A DNA stretch of 64,000 nt from Pirellulales bacterium (GCA_963733035.1 CAVTBU010000005.1:1376001-1440000), one strand, 5' to 3'; shown: positions 1-9,740, counted from the stretch's first letter. A program made the numbers and translations. The notes: generated by a model from the sequence alone, not told the origin.

Positions 1-250
1 CGTACAACCACTATTACGCGCCGAACTCCACGCTGCCGGATTGCCTGGGCACGCGATTGGGCGGCGGTCTGCAGTACAACTTTTCAGCCTACGGTTGCGC
101 GCGGCCCGCAGTCGGCATCCTGGCGGCGTTAACCTGCTGCTGGCCGACGGCTCGGTCCGTTTCATCAACGAGGCGATTGACGTGCGACCCTGGCTGAGCC
201 TTTCCACGCGAGAAGGGGACGAGCTACCCGCGTCGACGGAAAATCCTTAA
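1..250 (+). CDS. DUF1559 family protein, C-terminal part (5' truncated by window; apparent 1-nt frameshift near 97)
   Basis: Frame 3 reads [14 protein letters not shown]...YG, then frame 2 continues [23 protein letters not shown]...[11 protein letters not shown], the H-X9-DG C-terminus typical of DUF1559. Confidence 0.85.
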
Positions 251-277
251 CCACGAGCACCCTCATCACGGTAAACC

Positions 278-1063
278 ATGACCACCGAAACGAAACGTGC
301 CTTCGTATCTGGCGAGCAGATTACGCGATATCACACCGACGGTTACCTGATCCTGCGCGATGTGTTTCCGCCCGACGAAGTGGCGGCGCTGGCATCCGAG
401 GCCGAAACACTCATCGGCCGGACCGAGCTTATCGACTCGGCCAACATTCGCTGTCGCTGGTCCGACCACGTCCGTACCGGCGAATGCCTGTTCGATTGTT
501 TCGATCCGGTGATCGACATCGGCCCGGTTTGTCGCCATGTCGCCAGCGACCCGCGCATCGTGGATCCACTTAGTGCTCTCTACCGCGAGCCGGCGGTGCT
601 CTTCAAGGATAAGTTGATTTTTAAGCGCCCGGGAGTGAAGGGGTACAATCTGCACCAGGACTATATCAGTTGGCCGGAGTTTCCTCGGAGCTTCGTCACG
701 GTGATTCTGGCCATCGACCGAACCGACACCGAAAATGGCGGCACGGAAATCTTTCCCGGCTATCACACCCAAGGGTATCTCTCGCCTCCAGATGGCGACT
801 ACCACGAGTTGCCTCTGGATACGATTGACGAGTCGCGAGGGATCGTGCTCGATTTGGACCCGGGCGACCTGGCGATCTTCAGCGGCTTCACTCCGCACCG
901 CTCCGCCCCAAACACAAGCAATCGCTGGCGCCGGCAATTGTATTTAAGTTACAATCGCCAGAGCGACGGCGGCCATCAGCGTGAAGCCCATTACCGCCAG
1001 TTTCACGACTGGCTCAAAATGAAATACGCTCAGTACGGGCGCGGCGAGGTTTACTTCCAATAG
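278..1063 (+). CDS. Phytanoyl-CoA dioxygenase (PhyH) family Fe(II)/2-oxoglutarate dioxygenase
   Basis: DGYLILRDVF N-terminus, HQD iron motif, ENGG, distal PHRS His, RRQLYLSY 2OG-binding Arg region. Confidence 0.9.
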   Translation: MTTETKRAFVSGEQITRYHTDGYLILRDVFPPDEVAALASEAETLIGRTELIDSANIRCRWSDHVRTGECLFDCFDPVIDIGPVCRHVASDPRIVDPLSALYREPAVLFKDKLIFKRPGVKGYNLHQDYISWPEFPRSFVTVILAIDRTDTENGGTEIFPGYHTQGYLSPPDGDYHELPLDTIDESRGIVLDLDPGDLAIFSGFTPHRSAPNTSNRWRRQLYLSYNRQSDGGHQREAHYRQFHDWLKMKYAQYGRGEVYFQ

Positions 1064-1143
1064 CAGTCGGCCCCCAAAACGATCATTCACCAACGGCCCG
1101 GGAACCGCTCTTTTCCGGAAACTCCTCGCGGGAGCACTGAATC

Positions 1144-2199
1144 ATGTCATCGCCCCTTCCAGTCATCGCCTCCGCAACCGACAACGGCCAGGTATTGTTT
1201 CACCTCTCGTTAAACGTCGACGATCTGACGCGCAGCGTCGACTTCTTCCGTTTGCTCTTCGATCAGCCCCCTTCGAAGCATCAGCGAGACTATGCAAAAT
1301 TCGAATTGTCCGATCCGCCGCTGGTGCTCTCGCTCGAACCGACGCGAACGCCGCGCGGCGGCAAGCTGAATCACCTAGGGTTTCGGCTGGCCAACTCCGC
1401 CGTGCTCGTCGCAATGCAAAAACGCCTTGAGCTAGGCGGCATCTCCACTTCGCGCGAGGAAGGCGTCGAGTGCTGCTACGCCCGCCAAACCAAATTCTGG
1501 GTTACCGATCCCGACGGCAATCTGTGGGAAATGTATACGTTCGAAGCCGACCTCGAGCATCGCGGAATGGGCCAGGTCCCGCGCAAATCGAACGAGTCGG
1601 TCGCGGCCTCCGATCGCTCGGCGCCGGCCCCCGCCATCTGGGCTCATCGACTCGGCGAGCCCTTCCCGGTGCGAATTTTGGCGGATTCCGACGGCGTTGA
1701 CGAAGTCTTGCTGCAAGGAACCTTCAACGCCCGCCTAACGAGCGAGCAGCGTCGCGGGCAACTGGTCGAGGTTCTGAGAATCCTGAAGCCTGCCGGCCGT
1801 GTGATGCTGCACCAGCTAACCGCGGAGCGGTCGGTCGCGACCATCCGTACTCCCCTTCCCGGCCCCGCGGTGGCCGTCGAAGCGGTTCCCACCGCCGAGG
1901 AAATCGCCGACGATCTGGCCGCGGCCGGTTTCATCCAAGTCGAATTCGAAAAGCTCGGCGACAACCCTTGTTTCAACGCCGACGGCGTCGCGTGTCGCGA
2001 AACAAAACTCATCGGCCACAAGCGGGCTCCAAGCTCGACCGGTCCTGCGCGACATGTCCTTTACAAAGGCCCATACCGACAACTCGAAGACGACCTGGGG
2101 AACCACTTCCGCCGTGGTGTCTGGACCGAGGTCGATGCCGCCACCTGGCAGTCGCTCGCCGCTTCGTCGTTGGCAGATCAATTCGCGATGCCCCGATAG
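1144..2199 (+). CDS. arsI: ArsI/CadI-family VOC metalloenzyme fused to a degenerate methyltransferase-like C-terminal domain
   Basis: FHLSLNV, LNHLGF, ECCYARQTKFWVTDPDGNLWE in the N-half; the C-half aligns by eye with the C-terminal half of ArsM (VDEVLLQGTFN / RILKPAGR / LAAAGF). Confidence 0.8.
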   Translation: MSSPLPVIASATDNGQVLFHLSLNVDDLTRSVDFFRLLFDQPPSKHQRDYAKFELSDPPLVLSLEPTRTPRGGKLNHLGFRLANSAVLVAMQKRLELGGISTSREEGVECCYARQTKFWVTDPDGNLWEMYTFEADLEHRGMGQVPRKSNESVAASDRSAPAPAIWAHRLGEPFPVRILADSDGVDEVLLQGTFNARLTSEQRRGQLVEVLRILKPAGRVMLHQLTAERSVATIRTPLPGPAVAVEAVPTAEEIADDLAAAGFIQVEFEKLGDNPCFNADGVACRETKLIGHKRAPSSTGPARHVLYKGPYRQLEDDLGNHFRRGVWTEVDAATWQSLAASSLADQFAMPR

Positions 2200-2228
2200 G
2201 TCACGACCAGCGGCCAGGAGAATCGCAC

Positions 2229-2272
2229 TTGACCCAATCGATGCGCGCCACTATATTTGCTTACACGAATAT
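2229..2272 (+). promoter_or_regulatory. sigma70-type promoter of arsR with overlapping ArsR-operator-like inverted repeat
   Basis: TTGACC (2229-2234)-N17-TATATT (2252-2257); imperfect palindrome ATATTTG-N6-CGAATAT (2253-2272). Confidence 0.7.
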
Positions 2273-2618
2273 GAAAACCAAATCCGGGCCCAACGTCGAC
2301 TTGATGTTCCGAGCTTTTTCGGATCGCACGCGGTTGCGCATTTTACATATGCTCGCCAGCGGCGAATTATGCGTGTGCGACATCGTCGCCGTGCTGCGAG
2401 TTCCGCAGCCAAAAGCCTCACGACACCTGGCCTACCTGCGGAAGGCGGGTTTGGTCATGGCACGCAAGGAAGGACTTTGGAGCTACTACCGGCTGGCCCC
2501 GGCCCAAGGCACCTTCCACCGGAAACTTCTCGACTGCCTGGCTTGCTGCTTCCAGGAAGTTCCTGAGTTGGTAGCCGACGCCAAACAGATCGCCGCGCGC
2601 AAAGCCTGCCGCGGCTAA
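2271..2618 (+). CDS. arsR: ArsR/SmtB family arsenic-responsive repressor
   Basis: FRAFSDRTRLRIL, ELCVCDI metal box, SRHLAYLRKAGLV HTH, C-terminal CLACC. Confidence 0.92.
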   Translation: MKTKSGPNVDLMFRAFSDRTRLRILHMLASGELCVCDIVAVLRVPQPKASRHLAYLRKAGLVMARKEGLWSYYRLAPAQGTFHRKLLDCLACCFQEVPELVADAKQIAARKACRG

Positions 2619-2650
2619 AATTTTTTACCAATCTATATTCGCTTACGCGT

Positions 2651-3130
2651 ATGAATAACACGACTCCGAATCCTGAAAAGAAACTCACCGTGCTCTTCCT
2701 GTGCACCGGAAACTCCTGCCGCAGTCAGATGGCTGAAGGCTGGGCGCGGCACCTCAAGGGCGAACAGATCGAAGCCTACTCGGCCGGAATTGATCCCCAT
2801 GCACTGAACCCGTGGGCCGTGCAAGTCATGGCCGAAGCGGGCATCGATATCAGCCGGCAACGCTCACAGCACATCAACGAGTTCGAAGATGTCGAATTCG
2901 ACTACGTTGTTTCCGTATGTGATCGGGCCCGCCAATCGTGCCCGGCGCTTCCCAGCGGCAAGCACCGATTGCACGTGGCCTTTGACGATCCGCCACGCCA
3001 GGCAATCACCGCGGTGACCGACGAACAAACCCTCGCTCCGTATCGCCGCGTCCGCGACGAGATTCGCAAGTTCATTGAGGAAATGCCTGACAATCTGGCA
3101 ACTTTCTCATCAACCACTCCCGGAGGTTAA
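2651..3130 (+). CDS. arsC: Arsenate reductase, thioredoxin-coupled (LMW-PTP fold)
   Basis: CTGNSCRSQMAEG P-loop, C-x6-CP pair (VCDRARQSCP), FDDP, RVRDEI. Confidence 0.92.
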   Translation: MNNTTPNPEKKLTVLFLCTGNSCRSQMAEGWARHLKGEQIEAYSAGIDPHALNPWAVQVMAEAGIDISRQRSQHINEFEDVEFDYVVSVCDRARQSCPALPSGKHRLHVAFDDPPRQAITAVTDEQTLAPYRRVRDEIRKFIEEMPDNLATFSSTTPGG

Positions 3131-3133
3131 CTC

Positions 3134-4032
3134 ATGTCCATCGAAAAGATCGTGCAATCGAAGTACGGCGCCATGGCCACAAGCGGGCGATCGAGCGAGC
3201 ACTCCGGCGTCAAGGCGGTGGCCGAAGCGTTCGGCTATTCGCCCGAACAACTCGCCGCAATTCCGGCGGAAGCCAACATGGGGCTCTCGTGCGGCAATCC
3301 CACCGCCTTTGCAAGTCTCAAACCGGGCGAAGTGGTTGTCGACCTGGGCTCCGGCGGAGGGTTGGATGTGTTTCTCGCCGCCCAAGCGGTCGGCCCCACC
3401 GGCAAGGCAATCGGTATCGATATGACGCCCGAGATGATCGCGCTGGCCGAGACGAACAAACAGCGCTCGGGAGCCACAAACGTCGAGTTCCACCTGGCCA
3501 CGATCGACAACATGCCGTTGGCCGACGAATCGGTCGACTGCGTGATCAGCAACTGCGTGATCAATCTGGCCAGCGACAAGCCGGCCGTTTTCCGCGAAAT
3601 CGCCCGCGTACTAAAGCCCGGCGGCCGGTTGGCCGTCAGCGACATCGCGCTCAAGCGAGAGTTGCCGCCAGAGCTCAGCGAAAGTCTGGCTGCGTATGTC
3701 GGATGCGTGGCCGGTGCTATTTCAATCGACGAGTATCGCCAGGGACTGCGCGCGGCGGGTTTCGCGCACGTCGAAATCGTCGACACCGGCGCGGACTTGA
3801 ACGCCTATGCAAAGGCCGACAACCAGGCCGGTTGCTGTGCGCCGGACCCTCCGAAGCGGCGCTGCCCGTGGTTGACGGCGGCCAGGCGGAAGGCAGCTTT
3901 CCCGAGCAGCTGCGCGAGCTGATGACCAAGTATAATGTCAACGACTACGCCGCCAGCGTGAAGGTGTACGCCGTCAAGACCGCCGAGGCCGCCCAATCGT
4001 GCTGCAACCCCGTGCATGGCGAGTGCTGTTGA
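3134..4032 (+). CDS. arsM: Arsenite S-adenosylmethionine methyltransferase (apparent frameshift near 3840)
   Basis: [30 protein letters not shown]; the tail [16 protein letters not shown]...CC continues in another frame to TGA at 4030-4032. Confidence 0.9.
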
Positions 4033-5021: not shown

Positions 5022-6278
<1,257 letters not shown>

Positions 6279-6300
6279 TAGATACGCAGCTCGATATCCG

Positions 6301-6339
6301 AAAAGAGCCCAGGGGAGATTCTCCCTGGGCTCTTTTTTT
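6301..6339. terminator. Bidirectional intrinsic terminator / palindromic element between convergent genes
   Basis: AAAAGAGCCCAGGGGAGATTCTCCCTGGGCTCTTTTTTT: GC stem flanked by A- and T-tracts. Confidence 0.85.
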
Positions 6340-6399
6340 CCAGGGCCATCAAGACCGGATTTTTCCGTTACACTCGTCGTCCGTTTATCGCGGCGGCGA

Positions 6400-7266
6400 T
6401 CAACGCACCGGACGCTCGAGCATCTTTTGATGCCGCCGTCGCTGCAAAAGCAACAGCGCAGCTCCAGGGACAACCAGGGCCAGGGTGGCCGGCTCCGGCA
6501 CGACCGCCACGAAGCGCACGATGCCTTCAACGTCGGGGCGCCCGGAACTGGCCCAGCCGAGCAGCGGGTGACCCTCGCTGTCGACTGGAACGTTGAATCC
6601 CATATCATCCAAACGGACGCTCGAATTGTAGATGTTCAGAATGTACGACTTTCCGACGACGAGCGGCACGGACGGCGACCAATCAGTCGTGCCGGCCGGT
6701 ATGACGGTCGACAACACGTTGTGAAGGGGATCGCCCATTTGTGCGGTAAAAGATTGGCCGGGCGGCAGATCGAGTACGAAGTGTGGAGTCGGCGTGCTGA
6801 CGTTCGAATTGTGTATGGGTGATAGAATTACAGGCGGTGCGATGTCCGCGGCCGTGAGCAAGCCCAAGTTCGGTGTCATTTGATAGTGCCGCTCGGTTGG
6901 AAGTCCCTGGTCGATGTTGAAGTACCAGGCTTGGTCGAGCGAGGTCACGAACTGGTTGAAGTCGACGAACGCGGGCGGGGGGTCGAACGTCCAACCTCCG
7001 TATTCCGTATGGACTCGATATTGACCGTCTTGGCTGACGATCTCGCCCGACGCAAAGTCCAACTGTTGGCCACCCGGAAAAAACTCCGGATAGGCATAGC
7101 CTCGGTAAGTCGTCACGCCGTTGACGTTCTCGGCGCGCAGGTCAAGATCGACGCGCACCTCGGCGATTGACGTCGTCCGAGTGCCGAAAATAAAGAGGAG
7201 AGTCGCCGCACATCCAAGGACCTTCGATGTAACTAAATTCCGACGCAGCATGATTGCGAACCCCAT
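6400..7266 (-). CDS. PEP-CTERM sorting domain secreted protein
   Basis: N-terminal signal peptide; C-terminal VPEPATLALVVPGAALLLLQRRR. Confidence 0.85.
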   Translation of the reverse strand: MGFAIMLRRNLVTSKVLGCAATLLFIFGTRTTSIAEVRVDLDLRAENVNGVTTYRGYAYPEFFPGGQQLDFASGEIVSQDGQYRVHTEYGGWTFDPPPAFVDFNQFVTSLDQAWYFNIDQGLPTERHYQMTPNLGLLTAADIAPPVILSPIHNSNVSTPTPHFVLDLPPGQSFTAQMGDPLHNVLSTVIPAGTTDWSPSVPLVVGKSYILNIYNSSVRLDDMGFNVPVDSEGHPLLGWASSGRPDVEGIVRFVAVVPEPATLALVVPGAALLLLQRRRHQKMLERPVR

Positions 7267-8185
7267 GCATTCAACCTGGCCAATGGTGTTTCAAACTGCC
7301 TTTGCTTAGCGACTGGAGGACCGCCTGGCGCGTTCTCGATGGGTGTCGTCCGTGCGTTGACGGTTTTCGGGCTTAGTCATCGGCATTGCCCAAGAATGCC
7401 GACCCGCGGTCGCATTTTGGAACCTCGACCGTGCAACGGCCTGACCCCTTCGCTGGAAGCGGCCCGGCGTTTTCGGGCATCGTCGTCGTTGGGTACGAAG
7501 CGAAGCAAGGGCAGTAGCATCGCTCGATTTGCACTAGCGTGTGGTAATGTGCCCCCTACTGTAACTAACGACATGGGGCCGGTCAATCAAACCGGTGGGC
7601 ACCAACTAACTCTATCGGAACGCACATTTCGCGAAATACGATCCGCACAATCACCAGTGGCCGGCAAGGGATAACTTGGTCGATCCCGATCCCACTTCGA
7701 GGCCAGATCTCCCATAACTCATGCTACGAATTCTCGCGCTTGAAATCGGGCCAGCACCTGCGGCATACTCACCCGCGGTCGGATGGCCTGCGACGTGTGG
7801 ACGAGCAACAAGCCTGGGACCTTGGTTGTCTTGTCTTTGGAACCTGCCCATCCCCGCCGACACGTTTCGGCGGCACGAGGATTACGGGGTTCGCTTGCGT
7901 TCACACGTTCGCCGCTTGCCGCAAAACGACGGCGCCGGGGTACCACGGCGCTGCGAACTTGCGCGGCAGGTCTGGCTGTCTTTGCCGCACGAAGGTTTTT
8001 TAGCCTGGCTTGGCGGTGGCGGAAGCCGCCGTCACTTGACGTACTGGTAAAACGAGTGCTTCGTGCTGCATGCCGCGTGTCGCGCCGCTCGGTCGATGGC
8101 CGAGGAGTGACCAACCATTAACCACTTTCAAAGTCCAATCCCGGCTCAACCGAGCACGACACGCTTCTATTTTTAAAAAGCGTCC

Positions 8186-8232
8186 AACCAAACGCCGCGC
8201 GCACCCTTGCGCGCTGGCGTTTGGTTTTTTTG
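8186..8232 (+). terminator. Intrinsic terminator-like hairpin
   Basis: AACCAAACGCC-GCGCGCA-CCCT-TGCGCGC-T-GGCGTTTGGTT followed by a T-tract. Confidence 0.6.
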
Positions 8233-8399
8233 TTTTCAATTCGTCCTTTGTGCCCTTGGTGGTTTTTTATCAACATCCTGTTTTTAATTGCTTACAGTTG
8301 CCCCTTTCGGGGCTCAGGGATCGTCGGAAAGTCTGCCTGTCAGGCCTCGGCCTGACCTTCTGTTTTCTTGACAGAGTCGTCAAAGCGATGCGAGCAGCC

Positions 8400-8828
8400 C
8401 TAGATGTAATACATGTTCTCGCTCTGCCGCTGAATGCGGCTCACCAGGTCGGCGAACGTGATCGCACGCAGCGCGTCGTATTCCACCTTGGCCACTTCTT
8501 GCCAGGCGTCCTTCAGTACGCGGGCAGTCGACGAGCGAGGGCTCGTCGTGCTCGTAACTTCCGTGTCCTGCCCTTCGATGACGGCCATCACCTCGCCCAG
8601 CGAAATCTCCTCCGGCGGCTTAATAAGTTGATACCCGCCGCTGGCTCCCCGCGTGCTCGACACGAAGCCGGCGCCTTTGAGCTGCAGCAGAATCTGCACG
8701 AGAAACCGCGAGGGGATGCCGTGTTCCTCGGCAATCGAGCGAATCCGCACCGGTTCGTTCGAACCGTAGTGGGCGGCCAACTCGAGCATGGCCAGGCAAG
8801 CGTATTCAGTCTTGGCCGATACTTTCAT
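8400..8828 (-). CDS. Rrf2 family transcriptional regulator (CymR-like, no Fe-S Cys triad)
   Basis: MKVSAKTEYA, FLVQILLQLKGAGFVSSTRGASGGYQL, MYYI C-terminus; downstream of cysH. Confidence 0.9.
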   Translation of the reverse strand: MKVSAKTEYACLAMLELAAHYGSNEPVRIRSIAEEHGIPSRFLVQILLQLKGAGFVSSTRGASGGYQLIKPPEEISLGEVMAVIEGQDTEVTSTTSPRSSTARVLKDAWQEVAKVEYDALRAITFADLVSRIQRQSENMYYI

Positions 8829-8915
8829 AGCCGGATCGAAGCCGAAGTCGCGTGGGGCAAAGCATCAACGCAATCGGCCGCATGGAGAAGCGGCGCTCGT
8901 CGTGGGCCGAGCGTG

Positions 8916-9740
8916 CTAGTCGGACGTGTGCAGGCCGCACTCTTTTTTGGCCGAGCCGCTCCAGCGGCCGGCACGCTCGTCTTCGCCAAACATCACCGCC
9001 CGCGTGCACGGCCAGCAGCCGATGCTAGTGTATCCTTGATCGTGCAGCGGGTTGTAGGGGATGTTGTGCTCGGTGATCATTTTCCAGACGTCCTTCTTGG
9101 TCCAATTGGCCAAGGGACTGATCTTCACCAGGCCGAACTTTTTGTCCCAACCGACGATTGGAATACCAGCCCGATCACCCGTGCCCTGGTCGCGGCGGAT
9201 GCCGCTCATCCAGGCCTGCCAACCCACGACGGCTTCACGAAGCACTTTCACCTTCCGATCAAAGCAGCACTGATCCGAGTTGGTCTTATACAGCGGACCG
9301 CCGTGCGCGGCCTCGTATTGTTCGACCGTGGTTTCGGCCCGCCTGTAGTCCACCTCGAGCCCATACCGCTCTTTGATCCGGTCGCGCAGCTCCAGCGTCT
9401 CTTTGAACTGGTAGCCGGTGTCGAGATTGAACACGTAGGTGCTCGGATCGATCGCCGCCAGCATATGCAGGATGATGCAGCCCTCGGGTCCAAAGGCCGT
9501 GGCCATGGTCAGCTTGGGTGCGTAGTTTTCGACGGCCCAGGAGATAATTTCAACCGGCGTGGCCGTTTCCAACCGGCGGCTGTGTTCCGCCAGCTCGGCC
9601 AGAAACTCGGGGGTCGCTTCCAAACCGTTGTGTGTCGCCGCGGCAAGTGGAGCTTGCTTCGCGGGCTCGTTCACAATGGGAAGTTGATTCGGGAACACGC
9701 TCATCGAGGGGGCCATGAGGGTGGAGTGTCCGGTCGCCAT
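8916..9740 (-). CDS. cysH: APS/PAPS reductase (4Fe-4S type)
   Basis: LDTGYQFKET, CC pair (QCCFDRK), SIGCWPCT, C-terminal ECGLH; start may be 9704. Confidence 0.92.
   Translation of the reverse strand: MATGHSTLMAPSMSVFPNQLPIVNEPAKQAPLAAATHNGLEATPEFLAELAEHSRRLETATPVEIISWAVENYAPKLTMATAFGPEGCIILHMLAAIDPSTYVFNLDTGYQFKETLELRDRIKERYGLEVDYRRAETTVEQYEAAHGGPLYKTNSDQCCFDRKVKVLREAVVGWQAWMSGIRRDQGTGDRAGIPIVGWDKKFGLVKISPLANWTKKDVWKMITEHNIPYNPLHDQGYTSIGCWPCTRAVMFGEDERAGRWSGSAKKECGLHTSD

Follow-up and report, generated by a model that had tools for sequence, protein, structure and literature searches.

Oxidative cleavage of the carbon-phosphorus bond by PhnY/PhnZ and PhnY*/PhnZ1 proceeds in two steps: a PhyH-family hydroxylase acts first and is followed by the HD-domain di-iron enzyme PhnZ, encoded by the adjacent gene. 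For arsenic, ArsI is to our knowledge the only aerobic enzyme that takes carbon off the element. Arsenic demethylation pathways are presented as sparsely studied, with ArsI as the known aerobic demethylase, in the accessible parts of three reports (PMC6426599; bioRxiv 10.64898/2026.08.27.747368; PMC6205960), and two of these describe ArsI as acting on methylarsenite (PMC6426599; bioRxiv 10.64898/2026.08.27.747368). A larger ArsI-domain protein of SAR11, named CsdB, was upregulated by dimethylarsenate (DMA) and proposed for DMA demethylation, according to the available sections of the first of these reports (PMC6426599). Methylguanidine is demethylated by a riboswitch-controlled two-gene unit of an Fe/2-oxoglutarate (2OG) dioxygenase and a subsequent lyase, as outlined in the available portion of the respective paper (PMC12508155). 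Here we analyse the beginning of a 64,000-nucleotide stretch of DNA (the window, G000:C5:1376001-1440000) from the genome of a Pirellulales bacterium (G000, 6.6 Mb, 92 % complete), and describe a conserved gene module in which a PhyH-family dioxygenase is paired with a predicted ArsI/ArsM-like fusion protein. No published account of this module was found in a literature search that had subscription journals and supplements outside its range. This agrees with the original prediction, made from the sequence of the window, which knew of no characterised ars operon with a PhyH or DUF1559 gene.

Six open reading frames (ORFs) of one orientation occupy the plus strand at the start of the window, separated in gene order by 27, 80, 71, 32 and 3 bp. 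The ORF listing confirmed in this respect the six co-oriented, tightly spaced genes of the original prediction, and the family names assigned there were upheld by Pfam and NCBIfam matches. The proposal of a single conserved pathway unit was not sustained: the six genes are two adjacent units, and arsR-arsC-arsM is preceded by its own promoter-like site and adjoins the other genes only sporadically. Unit 1, the conserved module, consists of a palindromic operator, a DUF1559 gene, the PhyH gene and the fusion gene. The DUF1559 gene (prepilin-type, HX9DG; PF07596/TIGR04294) reaches into the window with its 3' end (1..250, plus strand, frame 2-250); it starts 867 nucleotides 5' of the window (locus L002, position 11133). 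The operator of 28 nucleotides lies outside the window, 17 nucleotides before the ATG of DUF1559 (L002 11088-11115, equal to G000:C5:1375088-1375115). The Fe(II)/2OG dioxygenase of the PhyH family (PF05721) has 261 amino acids (278..1063, plus strand). The fusion protein of 351 amino acids (1144..2199, plus strand) joins an ArsI-type VOC domain to an ArsM-like half domain, recognised by NF041414, the ArsM profile and the fold. Unit 2 is, as judged from its genes, an ordinary ars operon. With moderate confidence we read unit 1 as a conserved, co-regulated module for the uptake and oxidative breakdown of a small organoarsenical, and unit 2 as handling the inorganic arsenic released.

The gene pairing was surveyed in both directions. 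Survey 1 comprised 80 genome loci seeded with PhyH, mostly from Planctomycetota and some labelled Verrucomicrobiota or Acidobacteriota, survey 2 in reverse 80 metagenome loci seeded with the fusion. The ORF cluster of the fusion included four unrelated GTPase-like ORFs and a 'CG' paralogue, therefore fusions were counted per locus and cross-checked by tblastn. An ArsI-domain match was present in 72 of the 80 genome loci and a full fusion ORF in 71, in 60 cases downstream of PhyH on the same strand within 3.5 kb. Five of the nine loci lacking a fusion ORF end less than 1.4 kb past PhyH, one is cut upstream, one holds a degraded copy, and two are truly without the gene. Of the 80 metagenome loci, 49 had PhyH upstream of the fusion in the same orientation; among the 34 in which the contig extends 2.4 kb or more upstream, the number was 31. 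One more locus had a partial PhyH at the contig edge, and two had no PhyH. The phylum was sampled with one set of 301 genomes. A PhyH orthologue of more than 55 % identity occurred in three of them, and the full-length fusion in the same three on the same contigs; 25 others had a match to the ArsI domain only, with no full-length fusion. PhyH and the fusion are near-obligate neighbours, paired far beyond chance, and the module is spread over many soil and water bacteria. Carriers in culture are Zavarzinella formosa DSM 19928 (L074), Anatilimnocola sp. NA78 (L012) and Planctomycetales bacterium 10988 (L004), so that the module is directly testable; in Lignipirellula cremea (P0089) the PhyH gene only was seen.

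The fusion alone could be an ordinary lyase for trivalent methylarsenicals, MAs(III), or aromatic arsenicals in the service of detoxification, with PhyH merely co-transcribed and of unrelated function. ArsI is active as a stand-alone enzyme that needs no partner, as stated in the accessible text of the corresponding study (PMC6205960), and 25 of the 301 genomes had the ArsI-domain match without a full-length fusion. However, the full-length fusion occurred in this sample solely together with PhyH, the pairing was seen from both seeds, and both genes have an operator in common. The PhyH cysteines are specific for the subfamily and the model of the complex, presented below, reaches its mark. We consider a lone detoxifying lyase improbable.

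The fusion protein is composed of an ArsI-type VOC domain (residues ~19-139), a disordered linker and an ArsM-like half domain (~160-351). Residues 19-151 scored 132.1 bits against ArsI_CadI_VOC (NF041414), passing the curated cut-off of 116; the N-terminal domain matched PF00903 with an E value of 9.7e-13 and aligned with the solved C-As lyase at an E value of 5e-21 and an identity of 34-39 %. H20, H77, E129 and the vicinal pair C110-C111 were invariant in 24 of 24 fusion homologues and aligned to the segments QLALRV, DHLG, CCYA and WEVY of the solved lyase. Presumably, these positions act as Fe(II) ligands (Gln/His, His, Glu) and as the vicinal cysteine site for trivalent arsenicals, which leaves the domain with the metal ligands and the cysteine pair of the ArsI family. 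In Foldseek comparisons of the fold model (predicted local distance difference test, pLDDT, 83.8) the top structures were the C-As lyase (5v0f, 5cb9) for the N-terminal half and ArsM/AS3MT for the C-terminal half. ArsM was also the sole NCBIfam match of residues 179-345 (model positions 166-334 of 356). Residues 160-351 contain no GxGxG, and neither the S-adenosylmethionine (SAM) motif nor the As-binding cysteines of ArsM were recovered: the cysteine of the ArsM motif GCVAGA is aligned to AVAVEA (Val/Ala). A phmmer search of the C-terminal domain alone against the PDB sequences gave no match, therefore the ArsM likeness is visible to profile and fold comparisons only. An Atlas look-up of the domain led to generic Methyltransf_31/11 clusters, consistent with ArsM and not specific for it. 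By these profile and fold comparisons the fusion traces back to arsenic enzymes in both halves, to ArsI in the first and to ArsM in the second, and the arsenic-enzyme origin claimed earlier for the fusion is borne out. The C-terminal half is an ArsM relic and not a methyltransferase, without canonical SAM binding, because the SAM motif is absent and the GCVAGA cysteine is lost.

A second, paralogous fusion gene was found in tandem in ten loci (L024, L040, L044, L045, L050, L054, L055, L062, L070 and L075; e.g. L050 7761-8987), while the paralogous copy was the only one listed for L080. The paralogue has lost the vicinal cysteine pair and mostly retains one cysteine (TVCGY); the copies of L024, L054 and L055 were typed as 'other'.

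The PhyH protein matched PF05721 with an E value of 1.9e-27 (97 bits). The triad HxD...H (H126, D128, H207) and R218 were invariant, paralogues included. The fold model (pLDDT 86.3) resembles hydroxylases of small molecules, namely the proline hydroxylase H11, the leucine hydroxylase GriE and the ectoine hydroxylase EctD; the beta-helix fold, the triad and the 2OG-binding arginine of a PhyH-type Fe(II)/2OG dioxygenase are thus all present. Cys59 and Cys70 are preserved in nearly all of 81 PhyH copies. The invariance of all three cysteines was considered and dropped: Cys74 is kept in 51 of 78 copies, and replaced by threonine in 26 and by alanine in one. All three cysteines are missing in each of the four distant PhyH paralogues that were aligned (L086-L089). 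The alignment marks Cys59 and Cys70, joined by Cys74 in roughly two of three copies, as features specific to this PhyH subfamily. The distant paralogues (L084-L089) are 34-37 % identical in the alignment and 38-45 % over the matched stretch; they are a separate, likewise uncharacterised subfamily, situated among glycoside hydrolases, sulfatases and AraC regulators in a polysaccharide setting. A very distant PhyH-like match of 24 % identity was located about 22 kb upstream of the window (G000:C5:1354047-1354757).

The best-scoring curated family for PhyH was the methylphosphonate hydroxylase PhnY* (NF052437) with 82.2 bits at a cut-off of 500, thus below the equivalog cut-off for PhnY*/PhnY. 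The module might import and degrade a small anion other than an arsenical, i.e., a phosphonate, phosphinate or organosulfur compound, with PhyH acting like PhnY/PhnY*, the VOC domain in place of PhnZ, and the likeness to ArsI and ArsM a matter of ancestry only. In some sources homologues carry the label 2-aminoethylphosphonate dioxygenase. VOC enzymes such as FosA bind phosphonates, and weak FosA matches were found; the TonB receptor, TonB and the lactate/oxalate-formate kind of transporter met in many loci resemble nutrient uptake, and ars genes are seldom neighbours. On the other hand, 82 bits are far from the PhnY* cut-off, the VOC domain lies above the ArsI/CadI equivalog cut-off and retains a vicinal cysteine pair that is of no use for a phosphonate, and its partner domain is ArsM-like. 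The regulator is a thiol-rich ArsR type and not of the phosphate-starvation type, and ars operons recur next to the module (the window, L137, L148). A gene like HD-domain PhnZ was not among the annotated recurrent clusters, no search having been aimed at the HD family. A non-arsenic anion is in our view an unlikely substrate; an organoarsenical is plausible.

PhyH and the fusion were modelled as a complex. The fold model reached a score of 0.84, the best of three controls 0.58. The score mark is passed by 116 of 157 solved complexes and by 2 of 215 mismatched pairs; it is a rough guide here, where own alignments were used. The runs had at least 77 % of the contacts in common, and the partner had a pLDDT of at least 86. 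The modelled interface involves residues 157-189 and 213 of the fusion, the start of the ArsM-like domain, and residues 33-51, 58 and 80-88 of PhyH, which adjoin the cysteine-bearing segment. The model supports a docking of PhyH on the start of the ArsM-like domain of the fusion. A functional coupling of PhyH and the ArsI fusion, one of the initial claims, has thus gained from the neighbourhood in both survey directions, the common operator and a complex model above its controls.

Further genes recur at the module. A transporter of the major facilitator superfamily (MFS), of the lactate/oxalate-formate kind, was present in 58 of the 80 genome loci, a Cys-rich ArsR-family regulator in 38, a siderophore-type TonB-dependent receptor in 16 and TonB in 11. 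DUF1559 occurred in 36 loci, 25 times upstream on the PhyH strand, and only once in one locus together with the TonB receptor. With only about 30 DUF1559 genes spread over the 6.6 Mb of G000, the adjacency to the module is not due to chance. The MFS transporter, the TonB-dependent receptor with TonB and the Cys-rich regulator with its operator, none of them part of the original prediction, together speak for a function in uptake and catabolism more than in mere resistance. A recurrent cluster without Pfam annotation (c16) was rejected, presumably a shadow ORF opposite the TonB receptor gene. In one complete genome a RuBisCO-like protein is encoded directly 3' of the fusion (L004 10411-11616); it matched 2,3-diketo-5-methylthiopentyl-1-phosphate enolase with 372 bits, under the cut-off of 409.

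The operator consensus AACATTCTnACGnnCGTnAGAATGTT, a 26-bp palindrome, was detected at 70 sites in 38 of the 80 genome loci, compared to 1.54 sites (maximum 5) in 50 shuffles. The independent metagenome loci contained 11 sites versus 0.36 by shuffling. Sixty-three of the 70 sites are at starts of module genes: 20 at PhyH, 15 at DUF1559, 10 at the TonB receptor, eight each at TonB and the Cys-rich ArsR, and two at the fusion cluster. In the whole genome G000 a single strong site was present, ahead of DUF1559. Inverted-repeat scans of the gaps between PhyH and fusion and between fusion and arsR revealed none. Since module genes share one palindromic operator, the module is a predicted regulon, and DUF1559 is part of it in this genome; the grouping of DUF1559 with PhyH and the fusion was well placed in the original prediction, as the gene precedes PhyH in the same orientation in 25 of 80 loci and here has the operator in front of it. 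The obvious candidate for binding the operator is the Cys-rich ArsR. This protein family scored 74-85 bits against NF033788 (cut-off 55) and has a C-terminal GCC motif (LDLGCC) in 38 of 39 copies; an N-terminal cysteine was noticed by eye, uncounted, in most of the 39. The copy of G000 (LNLGCC) lies on the minus strand of another contig, beside a murA-like ORF identified by eye (G000:C7:533033-533458, equal to L083 7033-7458).

ArsR/SmtB repressors normally turn on efflux, not uptake, under metal excess. This rule bears on a role of the module in the homeostasis of thiophilic or transition metals (Cd, Ni, Co, Zn), with an SmtB/ArsR-type sensor controlling the TonB receptor, the transporter and the CadI-like and PhyH proteins. 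The NCBIfam family of the VOC domain takes in CadI besides ArsI, the nearest solved relatives of the regulator are NmtR and SrnR, and the TonB receptor is of the siderophore type. A COG0523-like GTPase, by motif reading, accompanies the module in four loci. The logic of the repressor family runs against an uptake system, and a metal ion would hardly call for two oxygenases. The GTPase is confined to 4 of 80 loci, and arsenic is indicated by the ArsM-like domain and by the linkage to ars operons. Metal homeostasis is accordingly given a small probability. The GTPases are COG0523/CobW-like P-loop proteins with a CxCC motif, assigned by motif reading only (L020 8405-9502, L036 3494-4594, L043 5743-6816 and L062 3095-4234).

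In unit 2 a sigma-70-like promoter match (TTGACC-17-TATATT, 10/12, a consensus match only; 2229..2257, plus strand) lies in the 71-bp gap before arsR and suggests a separate transcription unit. The gene arsR (2271..2618, plus strand; HTH_5/metalloregulator) encodes an ArsR/SmtB repressor with the motif ELCVCD in its DNA-binding region, which we take to be the As(III) site. ArsC (2651..3130, plus strand) is an arsenate reductase of the low-molecular-weight phosphatase, thioredoxin-coupled type and belongs to the LMWPc family; it scored 143.5 bits against arsC_pI258, under the cut-off of 174.3. ArsM (3134..4032, plus strand) is an As(III) SAM methyltransferase with 293.6 bits for the arsenite methyltransferase NF008823 (cut-off 263). 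The co-oriented ArsR/SmtB, arsenate reductase and ArsM genes correspond to a classical ars operon, in which arsM is frameshifted in this assembly. Locus L137 presents the Cys-rich ArsR, DUF1559, MFS, PhyH and the fusion, followed by a further arsR, an intact arsM (70 % identical), a MIP channel and arsC. In L148 arsM follows the fusion, and in L040 an ArsC match stands alone after PhyH. The juxtaposition of module and ars operon recurs but is uncommon. The earlier remark on a missing efflux pump can be widened from the window to the genome: Acr3, ArsB and ArsP were not found in the whole of G000, at 92 % completeness. Two MIP channels are encoded elsewhere in this genome.

The original prediction had offered as an alternative that the cluster builds or tailors an arsenic-containing natural product. 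Natural-product tailoring is common among PhyH-family enzymes, and arsM is nearby in the window. But no radical-SAM, aminotransferase or other biosynthetic gene was recurrent in the 160 loci, where the genes that do recur encode uptake proteins and a bond-cleaving lyase. The ArsM-like domain has no SAM motif, and arsM itself is rarely adjacent. A biosynthetic function is very improbable.

For the favoured breakdown of an organoarsenical the following course can be envisaged. The substrate of PhyH would be an anionic arsenical, probably pentavalent, for which dimethyl- or methylarsenate or a larger alkyl-arsenical are candidates, and the enzyme would hydroxylate a carbon adjoining the arsenic. 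The unstable product would yield a trivalent arsenical, which may be passed inside the complex to the ArsI domain, where the remaining C-As bond would be cut and As(III) released. The Cys-rich regulator would leave its operator once the trivalent arsenical appears. The inorganic arsenic set free would be dealt with by arsR-arsC-arsM. Taken further, the module may be the missing aerobic demethylation or dealkylation route for pentavalent organoarsenicals, with import by the TonB receptor or the DUF1559 protein, either of them together with the MFS transporter, a cysteine-bearing hydroxylase, channelled C-As cleavage and a new arsenical-sensing ArsR; this more specific proposal is possible but rather doubtful.

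Several observations weigh against organoarsenical breakdown. True ArsM was absent from the 80 genome loci and ArsC present in one; the 80 metagenome loci contained ArsM in two and ArsC in one. Among curated families PhyH comes closest to a phosphonate hydroxylase (82 bits), some sources name the homologues 2-aminoethylphosphonate dioxygenase, and Cys74 is not kept outside the closer relatives (Cys 51/78, Thr 26/78, Ala 1/78). The complex control in which PhyH was kept and the fusion replaced was the one that reached 0.58. The closest solved relatives of the Cys-rich regulator, NmtR and SrnR, are Ni/Co sensors, and the copy of G000 is encoded apart from the module, with no operator site detected there. 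G000 is also without the MFS transporter of the module (best match 22-26 % identity). With a TonB-dependent receptor and an importer-like MFS the module looks equipped for acquiring a nutrient, a strange fit for an element that is toxic. Finally, we infer the hydroxylation chemistry.

Two genes of the window are interrupted, a feature that the original prediction had passed over. The DUF1559 gene switches frame near position 96 by one base, and the arsM frame from 3134 stops at 3922, with the ArsM C-terminus in another frame ending at 4032 and the shift near 3841. A relative 90-99 % identical to the window was found in Logan contigs of the soil metagenome run X2. Compared to the window, its contigs carry an additional G after position 96 and an additional C after 3841, weakly supported at depths of 2.2 and 4.2. 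No other net frame-changing indel was present within these genes: a -1 at 1618 and a +1 at 1621 cancel, and an indel at 3128 is at the arsC stop. Since the relative has an extra base at both places, the frame breaks probably either stem from misassembly of short homopolymers or are peculiar to this strain. The four DNA runs contain only small shares, in short contigs that represent pieces of every gene, and none spanned the gap between fusion and arsR, hence the gene layout of the relative is not physically demonstrated. Sulfur-assimilation-like genes were recognised by eye just 3' of rsmG (window 5022-9740): an ATP sulfurylase-like ORF (5022-6278), an Rrf2-like regulator (8400-8828, minus strand) and a phosphoadenylylsulfate (PAPS)-reductase-like ORF (8916-9740, minus strand).

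In soils, peat and waters the arsenic cycle governs the amount of toxic or volatile arsenic formed, and a conserved partner dioxygenase with its own uptake genes and regulator would extend this cycle by a new step. If a route for pentavalent organoarsenicals is indeed encoded, arsenic metabolism would gain with PhyH its first Fe/2OG oxygenase, and the DUF1559 protein would receive its first functional context. The module would also offer an initial point of access to DUF1559, a very large family in planctomycetes.

Among the described systems, the methylguanidine unit is alike in the logic of a ligand-responsive switch, whereas substrate, lyase family and regulator of the module all differ from the account given in the available portion of that paper (PMC12508155). 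CsdB of SAR11 likewise has an ArsI-like domain inside a larger protein, and methylarsenicals are taken up and used there, not merely resisted; its partner is cysteine desulfurase-like, and a PhyH partner is not described in the accessible sections (PMC6426599). With ArsM/AS3MT (4fr0, 6cx6, 8xt7) the C-terminal half of the fusion agrees in sequence profile and fold, but it comes without the SAM-binding N-terminal half, and the start of the domain docks PhyH in the model. The ArsI C-As lyases of Bacillus sp. MD1 and Thermomonospora curvata (5c4p and 5v0f among other structures) share with the fusion the VOC fold, the metal ligands and the vicinal cysteine pair. In contrast to ArsI, the fusion possesses an additional ArsM-like domain of about 190 amino acids and a histidine in place of glutamine as first metal ligand; it nearly always has a PhyH partner, has connections to uptake genes and in most genomes is not part of a classical ars operon. 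The PhnY/PhnZ systems correspond in the order of events, a PhyH-family Fe/2OG hydroxylase and then a second oxygenase that cleaves a carbon-heteroatom bond. The second enzyme of the module is, however, of the VOC ArsI type instead of an HD-domain protein, its PhyH carries subfamily cysteines and its regulator is of the ArsR type.

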